Shown here in pieces: positions 4,307 through 49,228 of a stretch of 63,979 bases of DNA (positions are counted from its first letter, which is position 1; each line of letters starts with the position of its first letter). This stretch comes from Candidatus Omnitrophota bacterium (GTDB taxonomy: Bacteria; Omnitrophota; Gorgyraeia; Duberdicusellales; 4484-171). Below the pieces are notes generated by a model. It had not been told where the DNA came from and did no database searches. It was given only the letters and a program-made list of their open reading frames with translations. Location of the stretch: NCBI GenBank assembly GCA_024542985.1, contig JAMXCX010000002.1, positions 1-63,979 on the forward strand. The letters are read 5' to 3'. A program made the translations under genes and the position numbers.

Positions 4307-6146
4307 CTTCTCTCTCTCCTTTAATTCCAATTACTAATTCTGAATCTGATTCTTCCCTTCTATCATAATAATATGACTGATATGGTTTTATCGCCTCATC
4401 TAGAGTCTTCCTAGATTCTTCCAGTTCTGTTTGATAAGTAAAAGCAGGATAACCTTTATATTCTTTAATATTTACATCATCGCTAACGCTTCGCCCATCT
4501 GCTGTAATTAAAGCGTCTGGTGCTGAAATGTGCGGAGTTATTAAAACCAGCAATTCTGTTACATCAACTCTATCCGTAGAACTTTTAAATAGAAAGCCTA
4601 AAAAAGGTATCCTGCTAAAGAAAGGAACTTCATCAGAGTTAGCAGTTTTTTCCTCTTTACGCATCCCCCCAATAATTACAGTAGCACCATCTTTTACCAT
4701 TACGGTTGTCTCAGCAGTTGAAGTATCAACTATAGGTATTTTATTATTACTGGGAGTAATTAAAAAATCAACTACACTGGAAATTTCCGGTTTTATTTTT
4801 AAGGTAACATATCCATCATCATTTATAGTTGGTGTAACTGATAATTTAATTCCGACATCGATGAAAGTCACATCTTCAGATATAGTAGAAGTAGTTTGGC
4901 CGGTAGTAGTGGTAGTAGTAATATAAGCCTGTCTTTCTCCCACGTGAATTCTTGCTTCATGGTTATTTAGTGCTGATATGGTAGGATTGGAAAGAATTTT
5001 GGTCTCACCCAAAGTGTTTAGGTAATTAACTACTACATCAAAATCATGGTCGTCTGTCACCATACCGATATGCATATTTTTACCAGGTTTAGTTGTCCCG
5101 CTGCCGGTATAACCGCTAGTAGTTCCTGAGCCGGGAAAAGAACCGACTTGTCCTCCTATGCTATTAAGCCAGTCTAGCCTAGACATCCAATCCTCTGAGC
5201 TATCCTGCAACATGCTAAAAGGATAAGACCCAAAATAGGTCATTCCCCCTGGATTTAGATTAAACAACCCCTCCCACTCAATACCTCTAGCCTGAGAATT
5301 AGATAACTTTATCTTAATAATTCTAGTATCTATCATCACTTGTTTAGTTTTTTTATCTAAGGCGGCGATTAACACCTCTATCTCTTTCATCCGCTCCGGA
5401 AGGGCCCTGACAATAACCTGGTTCGTGCGCTCATCTGCCTTAATTGTACCTATCTTTTTAGCATCTATTTGGGCTTTAAGTTGTGTTTGTACATCTTTGG
5501 CGTTAGCATACTTTAAATCAAAAATCTTCACTGTATTTCTTTCCTCGAGTACGGCCAAAGCCTGCTCAATTCTTTTAATGCTTTCCGGAGTATCCATAAT
5601 TAAAGCCGTTCCTGAATCCGGCTCAACTAGCACTCTCCCAATGGCGCTCTTTAAAGTATCAAAGAGACTAAAAGCCTGGTCAGGTATAGCGTACTGAAGC
5701 CGAAACACCTTAACCTGACGCTGATCAGAAAACCTGCGGCCGAATAAAGACTTGTATTCGTTTTCGGTCATTATATTATAAATATTACCTTGTTTAACAT
5801 AAGCAAGGTCATTGGAACGCAGTACAATATCAAAGATATCCTTAACCACTACATTGTCAACTTTAAGCGTAACTCTTCCGGTAATATTCTTTGAAGAAAC
5901 AATATTCAAACCGGCTTTCATTGCTAAAAACTTCAAGGTATCACCCACATCAATATTGCGTAAATCCAAAGAAACCAAGCCTTCCATGCCCACGGGTTTA
6001 GCTGCTTCCTTTATCTGTTCTGCCGACGCTAAAGCCTGCTGGACACTTTTCTGCTGGGCATAATTACTGCCAGGGATAAGCAATAATATACCCACAAATA
6101 ATCCCGACATAAAAAGCGCCTTAAATAAGCTTTTAAAAATAATCAT
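4293..6146 (-). CDS. secretin (PilQ/GspD/MshL family outer-membrane channel)
   Basis: N-terminal secretin-N/STN-like domain (DVGDTLKFLAMKAGLNIV). C-terminal secretin core ILSNPTISALNNHEARIHVG...VPFFSRIPFLGFLFK...LLVLITPHI. Confidence 0.9.
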   Translation of the reverse strand: MIIFKSLFKALFMSGLFVGILLLIPGSNYAQQKSVQQALASAEQIKEAAKPVGMEGLVSLDLRNIDVGDTLKFLAMKAGLNIVSSKNITGRVTLKVDNVVVKDIFDIVLRSNDLAYVKQGNIYNIMTENEYKSLFGRRFSDQRQVKVFRLQYAIPDQAFSLFDTLKSAIGRVLVEPDSGTALIMDTPESIKRIEQALAVLEERNTVKIFDLKYANAKDVQTQLKAQIDAKKIGTIKADERTNQVIVRALPERMKEIEVLIAALDKKTKQVMIDTRIIKIKLSNSQARGIEWEGLFNLNPGGMTYFGSYPFSMLQDSSEDWMSRLDWLNSIGGQVGSFPGSGTTSGYTGSGTTKPGKNMHIGMVTDDHDFDVVVNYLNTLGETKILSNPTISALNNHEARIHVGERQAYITTTTTTGQTTSTISEDVTFIDVGIKLSVTPTINDDGYVTLKIKPEISSVVDFLITPSNNKIPIVDTSTAETTVMVKDGATVIIGGMRKEEKTANSDEVPFFSRIPFLGFLFKSSTDRVDVTELLVLITPHISAPDALITADGRSVSDDVNIKEYKGYPAFTYQTELEESRKTLDEAIKPYQSYYYDRREESDSELVIGIKGEREDEQP

Positions 6147-6826
6147 TTCAACTCAACTTCCTCTCCACCGTAACCTAAAATAATCTTATCTTTGAAAATT
6201 GCTTCGACTTTAAATTTATCTATCATCTCACCTCTTTTTATAAAGAAAGTCCTGCCGGTATTGGTATCTTCAACCATTGCGTCTGGATCATCTGACCAGG
6301 AAATCCCGACCAATCTTAAATGTTTTATTTCATCAACCAATCTTGCCGCTATAACCGGCGCAAAAACTTTGCTAAGATCTACACTATCTGCACCGCCTAT
6401 CCGAAATATATTTCTTTGCCTTACTTTTCCTAGATAATACGTTGATGATTTTTTTAAAACCGAAACTTCAGGAAAAGCCGCTGTCTTTATACTTTCTTTA
6501 CTATCCAATTGCAAATCAGGCATATTTCTTAAGTTAGTAGTAGAAAAATAGGCATTATACAAAAAATAACCCGCTAAAATAATAATACAAAGAACTAAAA
6601 TGCTATTTATTAGTTTAAAATCTAAAGGGCTGATGCCTCCTTTGACGCTTTGTTTAAATTTCTCAGCCCAAAAAGAAAACCTGCTTATCCAAGCAGCAGG
6701 CGAAAGCAGGCTTAAACCGCGATGTTTAACCTTTTGTGCCTGTAATGCACCTTTATTCTGTAACTTCGGGTCTTCAATTAATCTTAATAGCTGTTTTTCT
6801 GGAGTAATATCTCTTTCTTCTGCCAT
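6143..6826 (-). CDS. GspC/PilP-like secretin-interacting inner-membrane protein
   Basis: Single TM helix (ILVLCIIILAGYFLY). The C-terminal segment LRLVGISWSDDPDAMVEDTNTGRTFFIKRGEMIDKFKVEAIFKDKIILGYGGEEVEL resembles the HR domain of GspC/PilP. ATGA overlap with the secretin start. Confidence 0.6.
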   Translation of the reverse strand: MAEERDITPEKQLLRLIEDPKLQNKGALQAQKVKHRGLSLLSPAAWISRFSFWAEKFKQSVKGGISPLDFKLINSILVLCIIILAGYFLYNAYFSTTNLRNMPDLQLDSKESIKTAAFPEVSVLKKSSTYYLGKVRQRNIFRIGGADSVDLSKVFAPVIAARLVDEIKHLRLVGISWSDDPDAMVEDTNTGRTFFIKRGEMIDKFKVEAIFKDKIILGYGGEEVELK

Positions 6827-7662: not shown

Positions 7663-7920
7663 TTATATACCAATTAATTTTTTTCGAATCAGCCGTAAAG
7701 AATAACCTTCTTCCCTTAACTTTTTTATCTTTTTCATTCTTAAATCCACAACAACTTTACTATAAAATCTTGCATTTCCTTTCTTGGCCGATACAGGCAA
7801 AAGACCAAAATCAGTATAGTGATTTACGGTTTGATAAGAAACCTTATACCTGTTCATTATACTTCTTGCGGAAATCAACTTGTTTTTTCCGCCGTTATTG
7901 TACTTATTATTATCTCGCAT
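7663..7920 (-). CDS. MerR-family helix-turn-helix protein
   Basis: 85 aa. The HTH-like segment ISARSIMNRYKVSYQTVNHYTDFGLLP is followed by a basic helix. First gene after a consensus-like promoter. Confidence 0.6.
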   Translation of the reverse strand: MRDNNKYNNGGKNKLISARSIMNRYKVSYQTVNHYTDFGLLPVSAKKGNARFYSKVVVDLRMKKIKKLREEGYSLRLIRKKLIGI

Positions 7921-7976
7921 CCTTAATTCCCCTTTTCGTTAAGATACCCAATATACTGTAATTACCATAACTCCAG

Positions 7977-8004
7977 TATATACCGTAATCTTAAACTTTG
8001 TCAA
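7977..8004 (-). promoter_or_regulatory. sigma70-like promoter of the MerR-like/secretin operon
   Basis: On the minus strand, TTGACA (8004-7999), a 16-nt spacer, then TATATA (7982-7977), about 55 nt upstream of the ATG at 7920. Confidence 0.55.
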
Positions 8005-8126
8005 GAAAAAAGTAGTGCTAAATCCTTACCCCTGCAATATTCATTATTCTGTGGATTGATTAGATGTGTTAGTATTGAAAACTTTTATGCGGTTCTCAAT
8101 TTTTCGGGTCTAACTTTATATCACTT

Positions 8127-8397
8127 TTCTTATCTTAAATCTTTTATTTTATATCTATCATCTCTTCTCTTGTCTTCTATCTTCTTAGCTTACAGCTTAT
8201 AACTTACAACTTAAAGCTTGTATAGCTTACAGCTTATAACTTACAACTTAAAGCTTGTATAGCTTACAGCTTATAACTTACAACTTAAAGCTTGCATAGC
8301 TTACAGCTTGTATCTCTTAAATCTTCTATCTTAAATTTCTTATTTCTTATCTTTTAGCTTAAAGCTTACAACTTATAACTTACAGCTTATAGCTTTA
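8127..8397. repeat. composite heptad-periodic intergenic repeat (CT-rich heptads plus AGCTTAY heptads)
   Basis: 7-nt periodicity of NNNCTTA throughout. Shares a 16-mer, a 17-mer and a 19-mer with the locus at 43181-43282. Abuts the stop codon at 8398. Confidence 0.9.
8186..8312. repeat. 37-bp tandem repeat, 3.4 copies
   Basis: The unit tagcttacagcttataacttacaacttaaagcttgta occurs at 8186-8222, 8223-8259 and 8260-8296 (one T>C change). A partial copy covers 8297-8312. Confidence 0.95.
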
Positions 8398-8787
8398 TTA
8401 CTTATCTTTAAGCTTTTTATGCGTTCGCAAAACTGATTCCAGTAAAGTCAACCCCTCTTCGAAATTATTGCTCTTAGGAAATACTCCTGATATTCCGGAA
8501 GCCATTGCCTCTCTAGCTTTGGGATCGCCTGTATGGGCACTAATAACTATTACCGGGACATCTTTGTTAAATGTTCTAATCTCTTTGAGTGCCGTAACTC
8601 CATCCATAACCGGCATATGCAAATCCAAAAAGATTATATCCGGGGCTTCATTTTTTACAACTTTTACTGCCTCTTGGCCATTAGAAGCAGTTAGTATTGC
8701 GTAGCCTTTTGACTCAAGCCAAAAAGCCATAAGCTGTCTGAAATCCTCTTCATCATCAACTAAAAGAATTTTGATACTCTTATCCAT
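8398..8787 (-). CDS. single-domain response regulator (receiver only)
   Basis: Receiver-domain (REC) residues: KILLVDDEEDF, IIFLDLHMPVMDG, VIVISAH, K at PKS. Confidence 0.9.
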   Translation of the reverse strand: MDKSIKILLVDDEEDFRQLMAFWLESKGYAILTASNGQEAVKVVKNEAPDIIFLDLHMPVMDGVTALKEIRTFNKDVPVIVISAHTGDPKAREAMASGISGVFPKSNNFEEGLTLLESVLRTHKKLKDK

Positions 8788-8881: not shown

Positions 8882-10288
8882 CTATATTGGTAAAGTAAAA
8901 ATAAATTTTGCTCCTTGGCCCTTATCGCTCTCTACCCAAATTCTGCCTCCATGCAGCTCTACTATTTCTTTAGCAATTGACAAACCTATACCTGTCCCGT
9001 TTATATCGGTAGAAGACCTTTCCCCAGACTGATAGAATTTATTAAAAACCTTATCCAAATCTTCTTTTGCTATCCCGGGGCCGCTATCTTGTGAACTAAC
9101 CTCTAGTTCTTTTTTATCCCTGCCTAAGACAGCCTCAACAGTAATAATACCTCCTGCAGGGGTAAATTTGATAGCATTGCCGATTAAATTTATTAAAACC
9201 TGGATTATTCTATTATGTTCTATGTTAATTTTTGGCAAAGATAAAGGAATCTTTTGCTCAATTTTAATTGACTTTGTACCAGCCCAAGCCTTCAAAGTTC
9301 CAACAGCTTCATTAATTGTATTTTCGATTGATGAAAGCTGCCGCTTAATTCCCATTTTTTTGGCTTCAAGTTTAGACAAATCAAGCAAATCATTGATAAG
9401 AAGACTTAATCTTTTTAAATTACGGTCAGCAATATCAAGAAATTTCTCTTGAGTGGCATTTATCTCTCCGGTAGCTTTACTTAAAATCAGAGAAATTGAT
9501 TTTTCAATAGCTACAAAGGGAGTACGTAACTCATGGGTTACGTTAGCGACAAAATTAGTCTTCAACCTATCTAATTCTTTCTGCTTAGTTATATCGCTCA
9601 AAACAGACACCATACCTACGGTCTGGCCGTTTTCATCCTCTACAACCGCACTGCTTGCTCGCAAAATCTTCTTAGTCTCATCGTCCGGGCTCGTAATCTC
9701 TATTTCCCTACTTTCTGCTGAACCTTTAGCTAAAGAAACCAGTTTATCTTCACTCAAGCCATCTAAAAGAGACTCACCAATTTTATCCTCCCTTGAAGTA
9801 TCAAGAAGTTTCTCTGCCGCAGGATTCATCATTATTACCTTACCTTTAGCATCAACCACGACCAATCCTTCGGCGATGCTACGAACAACAGCCTCTGTTC
9901 TTTTCTTATCATCAAGAACTTTATTGTACTTATCCCAAGCAAGCTCTTCATTTTGGACGTGTTGTTCAATCGCATCGTCATACTTTTGGCGTATCTGTTC
10001 CCTATCTAATTCTACCCGTTTTTGCAATTCTTTCTCTAAAACGTTTGATGCCTTTCGGGCAATTTCTAAGCTTTGCTGTTCCGTCTTTACTACCCCTTTA
10101 ATCTCCTGAAACAAAACCTTCCTTAGGCCATCATCATCCAGAGAAGATGAATCATCATTGGTTCCTGTTAATTTTGTATAATCTTTTGTTCTTGCTCGGG
10201 CTGACCGCCGAGCGAAATTAGCCAAAATTGCAGCCGCAATTATACTGAGGACTGCTGTCACTATATATACTATAACTATAAATTCCAT
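8882..10288 (-). CDS. PAS-domain sensor histidine kinase
   Basis: N-terminal TM helix, coiled coil, PAS. H-box THELRTPF, N-box LINLIGNAIKFT, G-boxes DSGPGI and GTGIGLSIAK. Confidence 0.9.
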   Translation of the reverse strand: MEFIVIVYIVTAVLSIIAAAILANFARRSARARTKDYTKLTGTNDDSSSLDDDGLRKVLFQEIKGVVKTEQQSLEIARKASNVLEKELQKRVELDREQIRQKYDDAIEQHVQNEELAWDKYNKVLDDKKRTEAVVRSIAEGLVVVDAKGKVIMMNPAAEKLLDTSREDKIGESLLDGLSEDKLVSLAKGSAESREIEITSPDDETKKILRASSAVVEDENGQTVGMVSVLSDITKQKELDRLKTNFVANVTHELRTPFVAIEKSISLILSKATGEINATQEKFLDIADRNLKRLSLLINDLLDLSKLEAKKMGIKRQLSSIENTINEAVGTLKAWAGTKSIKIEQKIPLSLPKINIEHNRIIQVLINLIGNAIKFTPAGGIITVEAVLGRDKKELEVSSQDSGPGIAKEDLDKVFNKFYQSGERSSTDINGTGIGLSIAKEIVELHGGRIWVESDKGQGAKFIFTLPI

Positions 10289-13444: not shown

Positions 13445-13951
13445 TTACCAAAATTTTTCGCTAAATTTCTTATCCAATTCCTTAAACATGCCAAAAAAAC
13501 CACCTGTTCTGCCTTGGTAAGGTTCGTAAGTATCATAAGGCGGAACTAGAAAAAAAGCGGTATTAATAGCCCCCTCAACAGAATCCCTGACTACTAATGC
13601 TGTCCCCACAGTAGTACCTAGAATTAAACCGGCAAAAGGATCGTATCTTTGCGAATAAGAACTTATAGCCATAGGTATCTCTGTCCAGCTAAGAGCCATC
13701 TGGCTTATACCTCCGGCTAATTTAGTTACTGGACCGCTCACATAATCTTGCCGGTAATAATCCTTGCGTGAATAATCAGGGTAGCTTTCCCGATAATAAT
13801 CCCTGCGTGAATAATCAGGATAACTCTTCCGGCAATAAGACCTGCGTGAATAACTAGACTTTCTGTGTCTATATTTTTTGTGAGCATAAGCTTGGCCTGA
13901 TAATACCAACATTACTAGCACTAATGTCAAAATGGTTACTTTTCTAAACAT
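13445..13951 (-). CDS. secreted protein with Arg/Tyr/Ser-rich repeats and an exosortase-associated (TIGR04073-like) C-domain
   Basis: Start moved to the ATG at 13951, after the SD gggaggtg. Signal peptide, then the duplicated segment SYPDYSR(R/K)DYYR. The C-terminal KLAGGISQMALSWTEIP...GAINTAFFLVPPYDTYEP matches my recollection of the TIGR04073 pattern. Confidence 0.55.
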   Translation of the reverse strand: MFRKVTILTLVLVMLVLSGQAYAHKKYRHRKSSYSRRSYCRKSYPDYSRRDYYRESYPDYSRKDYYRQDYVSGPVTKLAGGISQMALSWTEIPMAISSYSQRYDPFAGLILGTTVGTALVVRDSVEGAINTAFFLVPPYDTYEPYQGRTGGFFGMFKELDKKFSEKFW

Positions 13952-13980
13952 ATCCACCTCCCTTTTGGGTTTTACCCGCT

Positions 13981-14014: not shown

Positions 14015-14236
14015 TATGTTTTTAAAATAATGATTTTTTTCCGGTAGCTGACTGCCCTAGCTAAATATAGCCTTAGGCTCTTTTAAGCTTTGCGTTATCA
14101 CCTTTTCAGGTGCTTTGCCTTTATCGAAAAGCTCTATTTTAAAGAACAATTTTGAACATATTCTATATACCATATATTTTTAATAATTTCAAGAATAGCG
14201 TATAAAATCATCTTAGGAAGATAGCTAAAAAGGTCG

Positions 14237-15379: not shown

Positions 15380-15388
15380 GTTCTTAGT

Positions 15389-15406
15389 CCTAAGTTATAA
15401 GTCATA
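15389..15406. repeat. short heptad array in opposite orientation (cctaagttataagtcata)
   Basis: TAAGTT/TAAGTC heptads 10 nt upstream of the alr ATG, inverted relative to 15527-15710. Confidence 0.6.
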
Positions 15407-15526
15407 TAGTGACGATAAATACATTTTTTAAATACTTTAATGCTCAATTCAATAACAAGCATACGATTCTCTTGCGACTCTAAAAGCCATTACTCACAAT
15501 TTATCTATTACTTTATCTTTTCTTAT

Positions 15527-15710
15527 TTCTCTCCATCTTAGCTTGTAGCTTATAACTTATTACTTATAGCTCTTTTAGCTTATAGCTTACAACTTGCAAC
15601 TTATAGCTCTTTTAGCTTACAGCTTTCCCCTCTTCTCTCGTTTCTTTTCTTATTTTTCTCCATCTTAGCTTTTAGCTTATAACTTATTACTTATAGCTCT
15701 TTTAGCTTAT
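15527..15710. repeat. heptad-array repeat block with a 53-nt direct duplication
   Basis: ctccatcttagctt(g/t)tagcttataacttattacttatagctcttttagcttat occurs at 15531-15583 and 15658-15710. The 21-mer acttatagctcttttagctta occurs at 15562, 15599 and 15689. Confidence 0.9.
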
Positions 15711-16374
15711 TCCTTATTTGGCAAGTTTTGGGATGTAAATATAAAGGTTCTAATTTCTCAACAGAAATAAATTTACGGTTTTTATAATGAACTTTTGCAG
15801 GTAATAATAAATACCGGGCCTTAGGATAAACATCTTTGGGGTAAAAATCTATATTGCCATCTCGCTCTAAAGCCTGCTTTCGTAAATGAGAATTATGAGT
15901 AATAAATAAGTGATTCCTTTTCTGCCGGATAATATCCTCTAGTTTGACTAGGTATTCTTTTCCATTACTTTGAAGGGTATTATTCTTTGGCTTAAAACAA
16001 GCAGCATATATTAATCCTTTACGGGCATCGGAGATAACAGCTATTCTTCTCTGAGCATTGCGGAAAGGATAGGCACAAGAAAAAAAACTGGACACTGCTA
16101 TTACTGGTTTTTTAGTGGCCAACATAAAAGCTTTGATTATGCTAAAAGATATCCGTAAACCGGTAAATGAACCCGGCCCCGAGCCGATAACAAAAGCGTC
16201 AAAATCAGACAGACTCAAGGCAATTTTCTCTAGGTTTTTCTTAATGTAACCAATGAGCTTGGTTGCGCCAAATTGCATTCGGCGATTATAGTCAGCGGCG
16301 ACTTGGCCTTCCTTCATTATGCAAAGAGAAATATTCTCTGTTGAGGCATCAATAGCTAAGATATTCATAAACAT
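15691..16374 (-). CDS. tsaB: tRNA t6A biosynthesis protein TsaB
   Basis: N-terminal NILAIDAS and GPGSFTGLRI motifs. The start could be the ATG at 16368. The last six codons and the stop lie inside a repeat copy. Confidence 0.85.
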   Translation of the reverse strand: MFMNILAIDASTENISLCIMKEGQVAADYNRRMQFGATKLIGYIKKNLEKIALSLSDFDAFVIGSGPGSFTGLRISFSIIKAFMLATKKPVIAVSSFFSCAYPFRNAQRRIAVISDARKGLIYAACFKPKNNTLQSNGKEYLVKLEDIIRQKRNHLFITHNSHLRKQALERDGNIDFYPKDVYPKARYLLLPAKVHYKNRKFISVEKLEPLYLHPKTCQIRNKLKEL

Positions 16375-17827: not shown

Positions 17828-17856
17828 ATTTCTAAATACTTTTGCCTACTTAGGAC

Positions 17857-18903
17857 TTAAGGCTTACGGTTTATGACTCTTTTAATATTTTTCCTAAAAG
17901 GCGGATAAATTACTCCTTTATCGCTTACTATTGCTGTAATGAGCTTACTGGGCGTTATGTCAAAGGCCGGATTTTTGACTTGCATATGTCTAGGGGTAAT
18001 ATATACCTTCCCCAGCACCTTTCTCACCTCATCAGCACATCTTTTCTCTATAGGGATAAATTTACCGCTCTTTAATTTTAAGTCAAACGTGCTAAAAGGA
18101 GCAACTACATAAAAAGGAATTTTATGATAATGAGCTAAAACAGCTAAGCTGTATGTACCGATTTTATTAGCAGTATCACCGTTAGCAGCAATTCTATCGG
18201 CTCCTAGAAAGATTTTATCAATTTGCCTTTCTTGCATAAGAGAAGCAGCCATATTATCACAAATTACGGTAGAAGGTATCTTCCTTTTATCCAGCTCCCA
18301 AGCTGTTAGGCGTGAACCCTGCAATAAAGGCCTGGTCTCATCAGCATAAATCCTTATATTTTTATGCAAGCGATGGGCCTTATAAATAACCGCTAAAGCT
18401 GTACCATCACCTGAAGTAGCCAAAAAACCAGTGTTACAATGAGTTAATATCCTATCTCCCTTTTTAATAAGTTTAACCCCATAACCAGCCATTTTGCGGC
18501 ATAAGTCTATATCTTCTGCATGTATATCTTTTGCTTCTTTTAAAATTTCGCTTTTTATTTTAAAAATGCTTTCTTTTTGATTCTTTTTAACTACTAACAC
18601 CAATCTTTGCAGAGCCCAGAATAAATTTACTGCTGTCGGCCGGGAAGTCTTAAGGTAATCAATTGCTTCCTTTAGCTGTCTTAGAAACTTTTCTTTTTGT
18701 GAAGAAAATTTTTTTGAGGCAATAAAAACATTGTAGGCGGCAAAAACCCCTATCAAAGGAGCTCCTCTTATCCGTAAATTCTTAATCGCCTTATAGCCGT
18801 CACCTAAAGATTTACATTCCCGCCATAGCTCCTGCAGCGGAAGCTTAGTCTGGTCAAGATAGAAAAGCCGGTTATTTTTAAATCTTATAGAACCCATATT
18901 CAA
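17857..18903 (-). CDS. mtnA: methylthioribose-1-phosphate isomerase (eIF-2B-like family)
   Basis: IRGAPLIGV and GADRIAANGDTANKIGTY motifs. Confidence 0.85.
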   Translation of the reverse strand: MNMGSIRFKNNRLFYLDQTKLPLQELWRECKSLGDGYKAIKNLRIRGAPLIGVFAAYNVFIASKKFSSQKEKFLRQLKEAIDYLKTSRPTAVNLFWALQRLVLVVKKNQKESIFKIKSEILKEAKDIHAEDIDLCRKMAGYGVKLIKKGDRILTHCNTGFLATSGDGTALAVIYKAHRLHKNIRIYADETRPLLQGSRLTAWELDKRKIPSTVICDNMAASLMQERQIDKIFLGADRIAANGDTANKIGTYSLAVLAHYHKIPFYVVAPFSTFDLKLKSGKFIPIEKRCADEVRKVLGKVYITPRHMQVKNPAFDITPSKLITAIVSDKGVIYPPFRKNIKRVINRKP

Positions 18904-21976: not shown

Positions 21977-21993
21977 ACTCTTTCACTCCTGTT

Positions 21994-22020
21994 GTAAGCT
22001 ATAAGCTATAGGCCTTAAGA
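21994..22020. repeat. heptad array (gtaagctataagctataggccttaaga)
   Basis: Fills the holB stop to PSP1 SD spacer. TAAGCT orientation. Confidence 0.7.
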
Positions 22021-22803
22021 TTAGTTCAATTTTAGCCTTATTAAATTTAAAGCCAAATTGATATTTATGCTCTTATAAACACTATAAATCTTCAATACAT
22101 CATTTAAGGCGTTGTGTATTCTTTCTGCATCATAGAAATTAAAGAATAATCCTTGTTTATCTTCCGCGAAAATACTGCTGCCTCTACCTGTAGTCTTAAA
22201 AAGCAAATCATTGTGCAAGAACATAATGAGCGTCCAAAGAAAAGATGAAAATTTAACCCTATCCTTAAAAACTATCCTACCTCCTTTTAAAAATTCAGCA
22301 ACAATATCAAAATTGCAAAGAGCATTTTCTCCTGCGTTAAAGGGCAAGAAAATTTTTCTACAACGAGAAATTATCGTAGGTAGAATTCCCTCCAATTTAG
22401 ATACACAAATAGCAATAAAAGAATTACCCGGCGGCTCCTCCAGAGTTTTAAGAAAAGCATTGGCAGCGGCAGGGCTTAGGCTATTTCCATCTTTTAGAAT
22501 AACTATTTTCTTTTTTAACCGGAAACTCTTTAAATAAAGAAAATGTATGGCTTCTCTTATTTTATCAATCCTTGTGTTGAGGCCTTGGGGCTCAACACAG
22601 AATAAATCCGGATGGTTGTGAGCCTCTATCATTTTGCAATCCCAACAACTACTGCAAAAATAGGAATCATTCTCACAAGATATCACTTTTAGGATATCAT
22701 CAAGAAGAGTAAAATCCCGGCCGATAAAAAGATAAGACGCCGCAGAAGAAGAATTCTTTTCTAAAATATGAAAATAATCCAAAATGCCTTGATTGCTTTT
22801 CAT
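22021..22803 (-). CDS. holB: DNA polymerase III delta' subunit
   Basis: NAFLKTLEEPP and TIISRC motifs. Follows tmk, as in many bacteria. Confidence 0.8.
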   Translation of the reverse strand: MKSNQGILDYFHILEKNSSSAASYLFIGRDFTLLDDILKVISCENDSYFCSSCWDCKMIEAHNHPDLFCVEPQGLNTRIDKIREAIHFLYLKSFRLKKKIVILKDGNSLSPAAANAFLKTLEEPPGNSFIAICVSKLEGILPTIISRCRKIFLPFNAGENALCNFDIVAEFLKGGRIVFKDRVKFSSFLWTLIMFLHNDLLFKTTGRGSSIFAEDKQGLFFNFYDAERIHNALNDVLKIYSVYKSININLALNLIRLKLN

Positions 22804-24908: not shown

Positions 24909-24921
24909 CTTAATTTATTCT

Positions 24922-25398: not shown

Positions 25399-25402
25399 AT
25401 CA

Positions 25403-25472
25403 GCTTTAAGTTTTAGGCTCTAAGCTTTAAGCTCATCGATACATAACTCATAGCTTACCGCTTATAGCTTAC
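25403..25472. repeat. heptad arrays in both orientations within one spacer
   Basis: The left half ctttaagttttaggctctaagctttaagctc is in TAAGCT orientation. The right half tagcttaccgcttatagcttac is in AGCTTA orientation and covers the ispD stop. Confidence 0.75.
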
Positions 25473-29529: not shown

Positions 29530-29702
29530 TTATTACCTCCCCTTTTAGAGTATATTTGACTATGAATTTAATTATATTTAATCTTCACCGCTTTTTATCT
29601 ATGCCTTCTGTATTCCATTCTTTAATTTCCAATATTTTATTTTCTTTACCTTTTCTTTCTTGTACATTTTTTAATTTTACATTTTTAATTTTTATTTTTT
29701 GT

Positions 29703-30455
29703 TTATACCTCCATCTCCTCTATAGGTCCGCCTGAACTCCCCTTTAAAAATTGAATCAAGCGGCTGTCGTCAGTGTTATCTAAGGCATTCCTGTCGCCTT
29801 CAAAGATAACCTTACCACCTAATAAAAATGCAAAGTGATCAGCGATTTTTAAACCAACCTCTAAATCATGTGTTACTATCAAAGAAGTTATAGCCAAACG
29901 CTTATGCAAATCATCGATTAAGGATACTATTTTATCTACAGCAATAGGATCAATTCCGGTTGTAGGCTCATCGTAAATTAGAATTTTAGGCTTATATATA
30001 ATCGCCCTGGCTATTGCTACTCTCTTTCGCATACCGCCGCTTAATTCATAAGGATGCAAATCCTCTATGCTTTTTAAACCTACCATAGCGAGAGTATCAG
30101 TCACTTTCTTTCTTATTTCCAGTCTACTCATCTTGGTATGCTGATGAAGAAAAAAACCGACATTTTCTTCGATAGTCAAAAAATCAAAAAGGGCACTGCC
30201 TTGGAAAACCAAACCAAACTGCAACCTGACCTTTTCTAATTGTTTTTTGTTAAGCTGTGTAATATCAACACCGTCTATGCGGATAGTTCCTGAATCCGGC
30301 CGAAGTAATCCAATTACATTCTTCAAAAATACAGTTTTGCCTGCTCCGCTTCTTCCGATAAGTAAAGCACTCTCACCCCTAGCCACAGTAAGAGTGACTC
30401 CCTTTAAAACTTCCTTATCACCGAATGATCTAAAAACATTTCTTATTCTTATCAT
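29703..30455 (-). CDS. mlaF: Mla-type ABC transporter ATPase
   Basis: Start moved to the ATG at 30455 (ATGA overlap with the mlaE stop). Walker A GRSGAGKT, signature LSGGMRKRV, Walker B ILIYDEPT. Confidence 0.85.
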   Translation of the reverse strand: MIRIRNVFRSFGDKEVLKGVTLTVARGESALLIGRSGAGKTVFLKNVIGLLRPDSGTIRIDGVDITQLNKKQLEKVRLQFGLVFQGSALFDFLTIEENVGFFLHQHTKMSRLEIRKKVTDTLAMVGLKSIEDLHPYELSGGMRKRVAIARAIIYKPKILIYDEPTTGIDPIAVDKIVSLIDDLHKRLAITSLIVTHDLEVGLKIADHFAFLLGGKVIFEGDRNALDNTDDSRLIQFLKGSSGGPIEEMEV

Positions 30456-31219
30456 GTCCAGGAAAAATAAAAAATAGCTGTTAAGAGACAATCACAAATT
30501 ATTATAAATATAAAGGAACGCACCACAGATAGAGTAACTGACTTAGAAACATCTATGGAAGAAAAAGGGCGAAATCCCTCATAGCAAGAAACAAAAGCAA
30601 TTACACAGCCAAAAGCAGTACTTTTAGCAAGGCCGCTTAAAATATCCCTGAGAGTCAAAGCATCAAAGGTCATCCGGAAATAAAGCTTATAAGGAATACC
30701 AAATTTAAGTGCGCCTACTATATAACCGCCGAAGATACCTAAACAATCAGCGTAAATAATCAAAATAGGCATACAAACAATTAAAGAAATAAATTTCGGT
30801 ACCACCAAATAATCTATAGGCTCAACCCCAAAAGCCTCCAAAGCATCAATTTGCTCGCTTATCTTCATTGAACCAATACCAGCAGTAATAGAAGCTCCTG
30901 TCCTGGCTGCGACTATCAGAGCCCCTATTACCGGGCCCAATTCCCGCACTAAAGACATAGCCACCAAGGGAGCAAGCTGAATTTCTGAATTAAACATTTG
31001 CAGCTGATAAGCTGTCTGAAAGGCTATGATTATTCCTAGAAAAAAACATATCAAAGACACTAAAACGAGGTTATCTACTCCGATAAAAACCATCTCTCTA
31101 ATCAAAGAGGCGAAGTCTCTTTTTCTTGTGAATAGCCATCGTAGAGTATCTCGTATAAAAAATCCCATGCTGCCTATATACCGAAATAAATCTCCAATTG
31201 CTCTGATCGGACTCATCAA
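30452..31219 (-). CDS. mlaE: Mla-type ABC transporter permease
   Basis: 255 aa, polytopic. The MlaE/YrbE-like LVRELGPVIGALIVAARTGAS motif is present. Confidence 0.85.
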   Translation of the reverse strand: MMSPIRAIGDLFRYIGSMGFFIRDTLRWLFTRKRDFASLIREMVFIGVDNLVLVSLICFFLGIIIAFQTAYQLQMFNSEIQLAPLVAMSLVRELGPVIGALIVAARTGASITAGIGSMKISEQIDALEAFGVEPIDYLVVPKFISLIVCMPILIIYADCLGIFGGYIVGALKFGIPYKLYFRMTFDALTLRDILSGLAKSTAFGCVIAFVSCYEGFRPFSSIDVSKSVTLSVVRSFIFIIICDCLLTAIFYFSWT

Positions 31220-35851: not shown

Positions 35852-35880
35852 TAGCTATAAGTTATAAGTCTTAAGCTGTC
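35852..35880. repeat. heptad array (tagctataagttataagtcttaagctgtc)
   Basis: Lies between the mcsA stop and the mcsB start. Confidence 0.7.
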
Positions 35881-36377: not shown

Positions 36378-36437
36378 AATAAATAATTAAAAATTAACAA
36401 TTAAAAATGAAAAATTATAGATACAAAGAGAGTATCG

Positions 36438-42795: not shown

Positions 42796-42826
42796 GTAAG
42801 CTATAAGCTTTAAGTTATAAGTTAAG
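42796..42826. repeat. heptad array (gtaagctataagctttaagttataagttaag)
   Basis: Fills the spacer between the four-helix-bundle gene stop (42829) and the oppD start (42787). TAAGCT orientation. Confidence 0.8.
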
Positions 42827-42828
42827 AA

Positions 42829-43176
42829 TCATAACTTTTTAATTAATCCGAACAGCATTTTACCAATTTCCTCAGACAGAGGAAAAATCTTTTCATAATC
42901 CTTATCCTTAATGAAACCTAAGTCTTTACTTAATATAAGATAACATTTCACCTCTTCTAAAGATCCTTCTGACATATTAAGAAAATGTCTAAAATCCTTG
43001 CTGCTTCTTCTTTTATTCCCTTCAACTATATTCGCTATAACAGAAACTGCCGCACGCCTTATTTGTTGAGTCAAGCCAAATTTTTCGTCTTGAGGAAAGC
43101 TTTTAGTAAGTTTATAAATTTCTAAAACTAATTCATATCCTTTATTCCAGACTTTTAAATCTCTAAAATCCTTCAT
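42829..43176 (-). CDS. four-helix-bundle protein (23S rRNA intervening-sequence protein / Avd-like family)
   Basis: 115 aa. Family hallmarks: FRDLKVWNKGYEL...QIRRAAVSVIANIVEG...SEGSLEEVKCYL. Confidence 0.85.
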   Translation of the reverse strand: MKDFRDLKVWNKGYELVLEIYKLTKSFPQDEKFGLTQQIRRAAVSVIANIVEGNKRRSSKDFRHFLNMSEGSLEEVKCYLILSKDLGFIKDKDYEKIFPLSEEIGKMLFGLIKKL

Positions 43177-43180
43177 CTCT

Positions 43181-43282
43181 CTTCTTAGCTTACAGCTTAC
43201 TCTTTTCTCTCTCTTCTTCTTATCTTAAATCTCTTATCTCTTAGCTTAAAGCTTACAGCTTATAGCTTATAGCTTATAGCTA
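43181..43282. repeat. composite heptad repeat (AGCTTAC, CT-rich block, AGCTTAT x4)
   Basis: Fills the spacer between the trpS stop (43285) and the four-helix-bundle start (43176). AGCTTA orientation. Shares modules with 8127-8397. Confidence 0.9.
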
Positions 43283-43284
43283 TT

Positions 43285-49177: not shown

Positions 49178-49184
49178 TTTAGTT

Positions 49185-49228
49185 GTAAGTCTTAAGTTTT
49201 AAGTCTTATAGCTTGTATCTTGCATCTT
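49185..49228. repeat. heptad array (gtaagtcttaagttttaagtcttatagcttgtatcttgcatctt)
   Basis: Fills the spacer from the cpaF stop (49229) to the proS start (49177). Confidence 0.75.

Follow-up and report, generated by a model that had tools for sequence, protein, structure and literature searches.

NARCTTA heptad arrays in operon spacers of an Omnitrophota bacterium: a probable case of STRR-like heptanucleotide repeats

What kind of element fills the 270 nt between the stop codon of a response-regulator gene and the promoter of a secretin operon with a pattern that returns every seven bases? The tract lies at 8127-8397 of a 63,979-nt stretch of contig JAMXCX010000002.1 from a Candidatus Omnitrophota bacterium (assembly GCA_024542985.1), called the window here. 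Cyanobacteria have been known for decades to carry tandem heptanucleotide repeats, with later finds in Burkholderia and others. The first-pass annotation of this DNA, made from the sequence alone, had described a dispersed family of NNNCTTA heptads with its largest locus at 8127-8397, and had named the short tandemly repeated repetitive (STRR) sequences of heterocystous cyanobacteria as its only analogue. We consider it fairly probable that the arrays are STRR-like heptanucleotide simple-sequence arrays, made by slippage and recombination, surviving in spacers and passively carried on operon transcripts. The arrays, whose heptad vocabulary in the window is [T/C/A]A[G/A]CTTA (NARCTTA), add a new lineage and a new heptamer flavour to an already known kind of repeat; the slippage mechanism and the spread of the common vocabulary are what we infer.

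The core of the main locus is a 37-bp higher-order unit of five heptads plus two bases (TAGCTTA CAGCTTA TAACTTA CAACTTA AAGCTTG TA) at 8186..8309 (+), present in 3.4 copies with 98% matches and a score of 241 in Tandem Repeats Finder (TRF; consensus TAGCTTACAGCTTATAACTTACAACTTAAAGCTTGTA), a copy number that is without independent confirmation, the corresponding European Nucleotide Archive (ENA) scaffold having an N gap at 8277/8278 inside the array. Both TRF and an alignment of the copies reproduced the unit as first described: the copies at 8186 and 8223 match it at 37/37 positions and the copy at 8260 at 36/37, while a partial copy at 8297 holds its first 13 bases only. Units that are 97-100% identical point to a recent duplication. 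TRF also reports period-7 arrays at 8187-8309 and 8356-8395. The unit is flanked by two blocks of pyrimidine-rich heptad variants, one at 8127..8185 (+; TTCTTAT CTTAAAT and so on) on the promoter-distal side of the 37-bp array, which reads as purine-rich AAGAKAN heptads on the minus (mRNA) strand, and one at 8310..8354 (+; TCTCTTA AATCTTC TATCTTA and so on). An array of AGCTTAN/AACTTAN heptads at 8355..8397 (+), TAAGYTN on the mRNA strand, adjoins the receiver-gene stop codon. All six frames of 8127-8397 are closed by 4-14 stops each, in line with the claimed lack of coding potential. Nor is there a CRISPR-like layout, again as claimed, the units being contiguous and without spacers, in contrast to the 24-48-nt repeats and unique spacers of CRISPR. 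The main locus has a 19-mer (8181/43181), a 17-mer (8354/43241) and a 16-mer (8127/43217) in common with an array at 43177-43284, and each occurs exactly twice in the window, at the positions first given.

Arrays of at least three NNNCTTA heptads occupy nine sites in the window, and all of them are intergenic, as had been noticed, in DNA that is 92% coding and of which spacers make up 7.9%. A three-heptad motif scan and a lag-7 check, both proposed with the original description, were run. The pattern ARCTTANARCTTANARCTTA (three heptads, at most one mismatch) gave 28 matches in the window vs 0 in 100 shuffles, and lag-7 identity in intergenic DNA was 0.352 vs about 0.29 at neighbouring lags, against 0.275 for the whole window. 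By TRF, the window holds 13 period-7 arrays of at least three copies. The restriction to non-coding spacers can probably be traced to the unit itself, because 7 is not a multiple of 3 and the heptads carry TAA or TAG. Of the 63 open reading frames (ORFs) of at least 100 aa, 60 lie on the minus strand; the GC skew is about -0.2 throughout and A exceeds T on the coding strand. As the spacers lie inside operons of a gene-dense, co-oriented genome, the arrays are probably transcribed, and on the evidence of gene layout they would form 3'-trailers and intercistronic leaders.

Are the arrays peculiar to this genome? Relatives were represented by 23 loci (181 kb) fetched only through TrpS, at 48-77% identity, one of them from Hainich groundwater. 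In these loci 7 is the commonest tandem period, with 11 arrays of at least three copies by TRF; shuffles give 0.6, and no other period has more than 5. The heptamers are ACGCAAT, CGCTATG, ATGGCTC, ATAGCGT, AGCTGTC, AAGTCAA, AAGCTCC and NNRGCYT; real CTTA arrays were absent from the roughly 181 kb, which gave one weak three-unit match. Since the relatives share the period but not CTTA, the period belongs to the clade and the heptamer sequence to the lineage. Such a distribution speaks for a mechanism bound up with the machinery of replication or recombination, or with a partner that co-evolves, and less for a binding site common to all.

Three of the arrays in relatives, at L133:5594-5627 (AGCTGTC), L134:13789-13817 (CGCTATG) and L143:2832-2862 (AAGCTCC), lie in frame in the predicted signal-peptide region of a SpoIID-like ORF, which in all three loci overlaps the preceding DUF2905-like gene; loci L135 and L136 are without an array there. 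The notion of one orthologous spacer with three different heptamers was dropped for these loci, the arrays being inside the ORF. Being in frame, they speak for tolerance of stop-free heptamers and not for a conserved non-coding element.

Further afield, a scan of 185,579 species genomes with the pattern ARCTTANx4 found at least 119 loci in many phyla. Among the matches listed, 8/119 were from Omnitrophota and the others from Bacteroidota, Cyanobacteriota, Planctomycetota, Poribacteria, Patescibacteria, Fibrobacter and Shewanella/Pseudoalteromonas; many of those listed are perfect simple repeats, and several change heptamer inside one array. In viral contigs, a different collection from that of the genome scan, the pattern had 34 loci, and three composition-matched scrambles of it had 93, at least 119 and at least 119. 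The idea of a cross-phylum 'CTTA family' was rejected on this control. Because the scrambled heptads are at least as frequent, CTTA is not privileged, and heptad arrays of many sequences are common.

The large locus differs in length between strains. Logan contig L511 (run ERR10503213) covers the DNA from the receiver-gene stop to the MerR-like gene with only about 62 nt of heptads. It is without window positions ~8144-8349 (207 nt), and with them every 37-bp unit and both unique pyrimidine-rich blocks are gone; a variant form of the stop-proximal array 8355..8397 is kept. The downstream flank of L511 is 98% identical to the window, and the retained array together with the 3' end of the response-regulator gene 91%. 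As a close strain does without some 207 nt, the large locus is strain-variable and mostly dispensable.

Length variation at such a place brings to mind a contingency repeat. The array adjoins the stop codon of a stand-alone receiver (Response_reg) gene at 8398..8787 (-), upstream of which a PAS-HisKA-HATPase kinase is encoded at 8882-10288. On the minus strand it is followed after about 120 nt by a sigma-70-like promoter at 7975..8004 (-; TTGACA, 18-nt spacer, TATACT, 11/12 matches), which is predicted to drive an operon for a MerR-like protein, an ExeA-like ATPase, a secretin and a TPR protein; no intrinsic terminator was found between the receiver-gene stop (8398) and this promoter. Changes of 7 or 37 bp in copy number could in principle act as a phase or rheostat switch, tuning read-through from the two-component genes or the promoter of the secretin (pilus/secretion) operon. 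Consistent with this are the 207 nt by which strains with about 98% identical flanks differ, the near-perfect 37-bp copies, a location that has the sensor kinase and receiver genes on one side and the promoter for a surface structure on the other, and precedents in hmw (PMC8262952, PMC12721329) and in the TTTTGAT heptads of ctxAB (bioRxiv 10.1101/2021.05.14.444153). We nevertheless judge a contingency function very unlikely. Just two alleles were seen, and between samples; the heptads are imperfect; and the array is placed 120-390 nt 5' of the -35 hexamer, outside the interval between promoter and gene. Moreover, the same family occupies housekeeping spacers; switching would be pointless there, and the array between ispD and ispF, for one, is stable.

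The STRR-like reading takes the arrays for a mutational product at the level of DNA and not for a dedicated device. Slipped-strand mispairing and recombination, unequal or ectopic, are processes that in many bacteria favour units of 7 nt, and they would create and resize arrays; blocks of several heptads (14, 21, 37 and 127 bp) would afterwards be duplicated anew; exchange between arrays would spread the [T/C/A]A[G/A]CTTA vocabulary among loci; and survival would be restricted to non-coding spacers. Should the arrays influence the downstream cistron in cis, the effect on its expression is probably modest and secondary.

The remaining sites show where the arrays have settled. All but the main one sit in spacers of housekeeping operons, including the essential operons of ispD|ispF, mcsA|mcsB and trpS. 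A composite array at 15514..15718 (+; TRF) between tsaB and alr combines CT-rich with AGCTTAN/AACTTAN heptads and contains a 70-bp direct repeat (15514-15583 and 15641-15710, 67/70 identical); the stop codon (15691) of the TsaB-like gene, so assigned by Pfam, falls within it. A separate short CTTA-type run, ACTTATAACTTAGGACTAAGAAC, lies at 15380..15405 (-) immediately 5' of the alanine racemase start codon. Every array in the original list exists, but the one given as 15389-15710 is array only in part, namely in these two pieces. That short run, the three heptads CTACTTA GGACTTA AGGCTTA at 17846..17866 (+), in a 29-nt spacer between an IF-2B-family and an AIRS-family gene, and the array at 43181-43281 are additions to the list. 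CTTA-type arrays are also found at 21994..22022 (-) in the holB-like|PSP1 spacer, ending 18 nt before the PSP1 ATG with GGAG between array and start; at 35852..35880 (-) between mcsA and mcsB, stopping 16 nt short of the mcsB ATG; and at 42796..42826 (-), where they fill the 41-nt spacer between a gene of the 23S-rRNA intervening-sequence protein (IVP, bAvd-like) family and an OppD-like ABC ATPase gene. The array at 43181..43281 (+) in the trpS|IVP spacer, the partner of the main locus in the shared 19-, 17- and 16-mers, reads on the mRNA as (TAAGCTN)x6, purine-rich heptads, TAAGCTG TAAGCTA AGAAGAGAG and ATG. Two sites hold both orientations. In the ispD|ispF spacer (25403..25472) TAAG-type heptads overlap the ispD stop, and inverted, CTTA-type heptads stop 8 nt short of the ispF ATG. 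Between a T2SSE gene and a class-II aminoacyl-tRNA synthetase (aaRS) gene (49185..49228), the stop is followed by CAAGATN/TAAG-type heptads, and a gap of 8 nt separates the last ACTTAAN heptad from the ATG.

Arrays of other heptads occur in the window as well, (ATTTTTA)x5 at 36380-36417, directly 5' of the mcsA start on the mRNA strand, and (AAAATTA)x4.7 at 29668-29700, in the spacer after the gene at 29703-30491; the 7-nt habit thus extends beyond the CTTA unit.

These arrays are not a product of assembly, a doubt raised at the outset, as they recur in independent same-sample scaffolds and in Logan assemblies. Same-sample ENA scaffolds match the arrays at 15380-15690, 21977-22020, 25399-25454, 43177-43284 and 49178-49228 at 99.8-100%; the trpS|IVP array (43181..43281) is identical in scaffold L513, the 15514..15718 array is reproduced in L514, and the ispD|ispF array is present again in eight Logan assemblies. 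Same-sample short-read scaffolds also break or have N gaps at arrays (L001:5511-5610 and 5880-5979), one N gap having a scaffolding artefact beside it, a stretch of 55 nt in duplicate, and ENA scaffold_2924, colinear with the window, stops at ~17887, 20 nt from the array at 17846-17866. Heptad arrays can evidently break short-read assemblies, and they risk being taken for novel regulatory elements. For the alr, trpS, mcsA, hisS-like and ABC loci, look-ups of other-strain alleles returned same-sample scaffolds only, or nothing.

Several observations weigh against slippage and recombination as a full account. Variation within the heptads is position-specific: neighbouring heptads differ at position 1 in 22/37 comparisons and at position 3 in 12/36, and in the CTT core in only 2-4/37 (chi-square p=2e-6). 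This argues against plain slippage decay, in which changes would fall evenly over the heptad. The same five heptads are moreover reused at about ten separate loci, which needs either a dispersal mechanism or a shared selective or binding constraint, neither of them identified. Across nine assemblies, with 95-99.9% identity in the flanks, the ispD|ispF spacer is always 56 nt long, and its sole single-nucleotide polymorphism is a G to A change at the R position. The arrays are also polar. Start-proximal heptads are of the NARCTTA type in 6/6 spacers, ending 8-18 nt before the ATG. Arrays that start at a stop codon in long spacers, those of the response-regulator, TsaB and TrpS genes, read on the mRNA as (TAAGYTN)n followed by purine-rich AAGAKAN heptads, and the ispD|ispF and T2SSE|aaRS spacers hold both types, TAAG-type first. 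In other genomes, CTTA-type arrays outnumber TAAG-type by 44 to 20 within 40 nt upstream of a start, and TAAG-type arrays outnumber CTTA-type by 64 to 29 after a stop, counts for which ORF calling was crude and of which the stop effect is partly trivial, as TAAG itself supplies stop codons; inverted pairs are TAAG-first in 13 cases vs CTTA-first in 3. The conserved core beside a free position, the reuse of five heptads and the stop/start polarity are left unexplained by slippage and recombination.

Purifying selection on the ispD|ispF array was considered and not upheld: 1/56 spacer sites segregate vs 20/269 third-codon sites, a difference that is not significant. Three related strains (L502:3478-3541, L503 and L506) have a 65-nt insertion directly after the ispF stop, at the equivalent of window 24909-24921, which holds a GC-rich hairpin GCCTGCCTGCAGGC...GGGCAGG and is missing from the window and four other assemblies. 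This insertion may be a small mobile element.

Could the polarity reflect a function in translation? Under such an alternative, the arrays would be RNA-level cis-elements for the downstream cistron: CTTA-type heptads would serve as a Shine-Dalgarno-independent landing or standby site, or as an array for a protein that binds single-stranded RNA and covers about 7 nt (S1, a cold-shock-domain protein or a HutP/TRAP-like oligomer), and TAAG-type heptads would pair with them, coupling termination to re-initiation. The position of the CTTA-type heptads in all six spacers, the like polarity across phyla, the kept CTT core with its free first position and the absence of a Shine-Dalgarno match in 4/5 short-spacer genes behind arrays, in a window with strong AAGGAGG sites elsewhere, are as this alternative would predict; so is the predicted folding of stop-to-start inverted pairs in other genomes (z -3.5 to -8). 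A similar idea has been put forward for the TAACTGA repeats discussed below (PMC4679880) and for Nostoc, where heptamers near start codons alter reporter output with no partner identified (bioRxiv 10.1101/2022.06.06.494920). We none the less regard a translational function as rather unlikely. Genes preceded by arrays are not distinctive, about 60% of all window genes being without a Shine-Dalgarno match; start regions that follow arrays show no loss of structure compared with the rest, and hairpins in the window are weak or not significant. In relatives, orthologous spacers have no arrays or have other heptamers, and a conserved S1 or cold-shock factor would not explain heptamers that are specific to a lineage. 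The 270-nt locus upstream of a promoter is left unexplained as well.

Folding was examined directly. No array matched an Rfam family, at gathering score in the whole window or at E<=1 in 7900-8450, and eight array segments folded on the mRNA strand gave z between -0.7 and +1.3, without significant structure; the structured-RNA idea was therefore abandoned for the window arrays. An unstructured-leader idea fared no better, the start regions preceded by arrays having -5.0 kcal/mol vs -4.5 for the other 54 (p=0.82). The suggestion that arrays of opposite orientation can pair accordingly found no support from folding in the window, with the exception of the pair that brackets the IVP gene. Elsewhere, inverted heptad arrays are predicted to form long hairpins of 6-bp helices and 1x1 mismatches at the variable position N (z -3.5 to -8; L092:5972-6034, L112:7238-7296, L116:2144-2203, L051:1638-1724, L128:2369-2448 and L133:1594-1663), and in other genomes and relatives such hairpins often reach from a stop codon to the next start codon.

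These hairpins allow a bolder proposal, to which we give little credence: heptad arrays may be a clade-wide intercistronic RNA 'zipper', in which a TAAG arm at the stop pairs with a CTTA arm before the next start in any 7-nt register. If so, the stems of 6-bp helices with 1x1 mismatches at N would be elements for RNase III-type processing or translational coupling, each lineage would have its own 'dialect' (CTTA here; ATAGCGT, AGGCTG and AAAACGA in relatives), and an IVP/S23p-like ORF would be bracketed in the manner of rRNA intervening sequences. Selection, and not the accidents of slippage, would in that case have shaped the TAAG-first polarity, the placement from stop to start, and the hexamer that is conserved next to a free seventh base.

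The pair of arrays in question flanks the IVP/bAvd-like gene at 42829-43176, which is bracketed on the mRNA by TAAG-type and CTTA-type heptads (42796-43281, -). The two arrays are predicted to form a 31-bp duplex of -32.1 kcal/mol, compared with -12.3 +/- 3.3 in shuffles, a layout that resembles rRNA intervening sequences cut out by RNase III. In the Coxiella intervening sequence, variable GACAGAT heptamers come before a homologous S23p ORF (PMC4990558). It might be proposed from this that a small mobile element, a cassette resembling an intervening sequence or a miniature inverted-repeat transposable element, left the arrays behind as its remnants or has them as its termini, and that it dispersed the 16-19-mers and carried the IVP/bAvd-like gene as cargo. 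Identical 16-19-mers at two loci 35 kb apart, the IVP gene between complementary arrays with its Coxiella counterpart and the polymorphic 65-nt hairpin insertion that the population carries elsewhere would all suit a cassette. Terminal inverted repeats, target-site duplications and a transposase are, on the other side, absent, and shared k-mers are expected between any arrays built of the same five heptads. Among about 1 Mb of array-bearing loci there were two IVP homologues, neither placed beside an array (their positions were not examined), and a general link between arrays and IVP/bAvd-like genes was discarded. A mobile origin thus has hardly any probability in our estimate.

A further alternative is that the heptads act on the DNA, as an operator- or centromere-like platform for a small protein, possibly the adjacent MerR-like protein or an effector of the receiver. 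A conserved core beside a free position, occurrence in both orientations and the closeness of the largest array to a promoter and to regulator genes agree with a platform of this kind. The polarity of the arrays follows transcription, though, and most of them lie in housekeeping operons far from predicted promoters; a close strain can dispense with the large array, other heptamers are found in relatives that have homologous genes, and no candidate binder was identified. We hold a DNA platform to be highly improbable.

The window is a well-resolved case of such repeats in an uncultivated lineage, and natural alleles of the NARCTTA arrays exist, with a difference of 207 nt between strains at one locus and no length change at another across nine assemblies. 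As for the surroundings of the arrays, the window has 36% GC and encodes LptFG, a secretin, McsA-McsB-ClpC and housekeeping genes, with no photosynthesis gene. A c-di-GMP-I riboswitch (RF01051, 64 bits, E=3e-10) was found at 14040-14129 (-), upstream of an ORF at 13445-13957 (-) that encodes 170 aa without a Pfam match; within this ORF a 39-bp tandem repeat (x2.6, 13751-13853) would encode 13-residue repeats.

How do the arrays compare with repeats already described? We found no literature on such repeats in Omnitrophota. The STRR units of heterocystous cyanobacteria are CCCCAGT, TTGGTCA and CAACAGT. The likeness lies in tandem 7-nt units at many dispersed intergenic sites, in both orientations and with several related heptamers per genome. 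None of the named STRR units occurs in the window arrays, however, which are [T/C/A]A[G/A]CTTA, degenerate at fixed positions and in part built into a 37-bp higher-order unit, in a host that does not look photosynthetic. STRR is therefore an apt analogue, but not the only one, as TAACTGA repeats, Geobacter elements and general heptanucleotide repeats have been described. Whether the arrays belong to an already described family has a twofold answer: the kind matches and the sequence does not.

Heptads that serve as operators are known from the omega repressor of inc18 plasmids, which binds 7-bp WATCACW heptads. Bound proteins have also been reported for the TTTTGAT heptads of the ctxAB promoter (bioRxiv 10.1101/2021.05.14.444153) and for the heptameric direct repeats of SARP regulators (PMC5930380). 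These operators share with our arrays contiguous 7-bp units, in some cases in both orientations; they differ in being located at promoters and having identified binders, whereas the sites in the window are mostly far from predicted promoters. The phase-variable 7-bp repeats upstream of hmw1A and hmw2A in H. influenzae (PMC8262952, PMC12721329) are likewise heptanucleotide tandem repeats near surface-structure genes that vary in copy number by strain. Those repeats are perfect and lie between promoter and gene, in contrast to the large window array upstream of its promoter and to the arrays in housekeeping operons, which are the majority. Geobacter metallireducens has multicopy elements of 4-5 tandem heptanucleotides, GGACCGG and MTYCTGA (PMC2700814), which resemble the present ones as short heptad arrays at tens of loci per genome annotated as putative regulatory elements; they are GC-rich, fixed in copy number (4-5) and found within genes as well.

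In surveys of long simple repeats, heptanucleotides are reported as the most abundant class with 5-11 nt units in prokaryotes, with polymerase slippage proposed as their source (Mrazek 2007 as summarised in PMC4679880; PMC4692102). Such repeats agree with ours in unit length, in copies above chance, in length variation between strains and in slippage as proposed origin; those surveys count near-perfect repeats, while the window arrays are imperfect, keep a conserved core and have units common to several loci.

Close in sequence are the intergenic TAACTGA direct repeats found immediately upstream of starts in Beggiatoaceae, Cyanobacteria and Bacteroidetes (MacGregor 2015, PMC4679880). They show 7-nt indels between strains, are missing from closest relatives and have had S1, cold-shock proteins and CsrA proposed as binders; TAACTTA itself forms no direct repeats in the BOGUAY genome (Table 3, PMC4679880). 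One array in Microcystis wesenbergii (L072, ~6231-6300) shifts in phase from AAACTTA to TAACTGA units, which ties the CTTA flavour directly to these published repeats. The differences are that TAACTGATAACTGA (at most one mismatch) has 0 matches in the window, that the window units are mixed and not identical, and that the long arrays after stops are in reverse (TAAG) orientation. The two kinds are alike in several other respects: both are intergenic direct repeats that carry stop codons when read forward and have no predicted RNA structure, the forward type lies just upstream of starts, and the window heptad TAACTTA is a single base away from TAACTGA.

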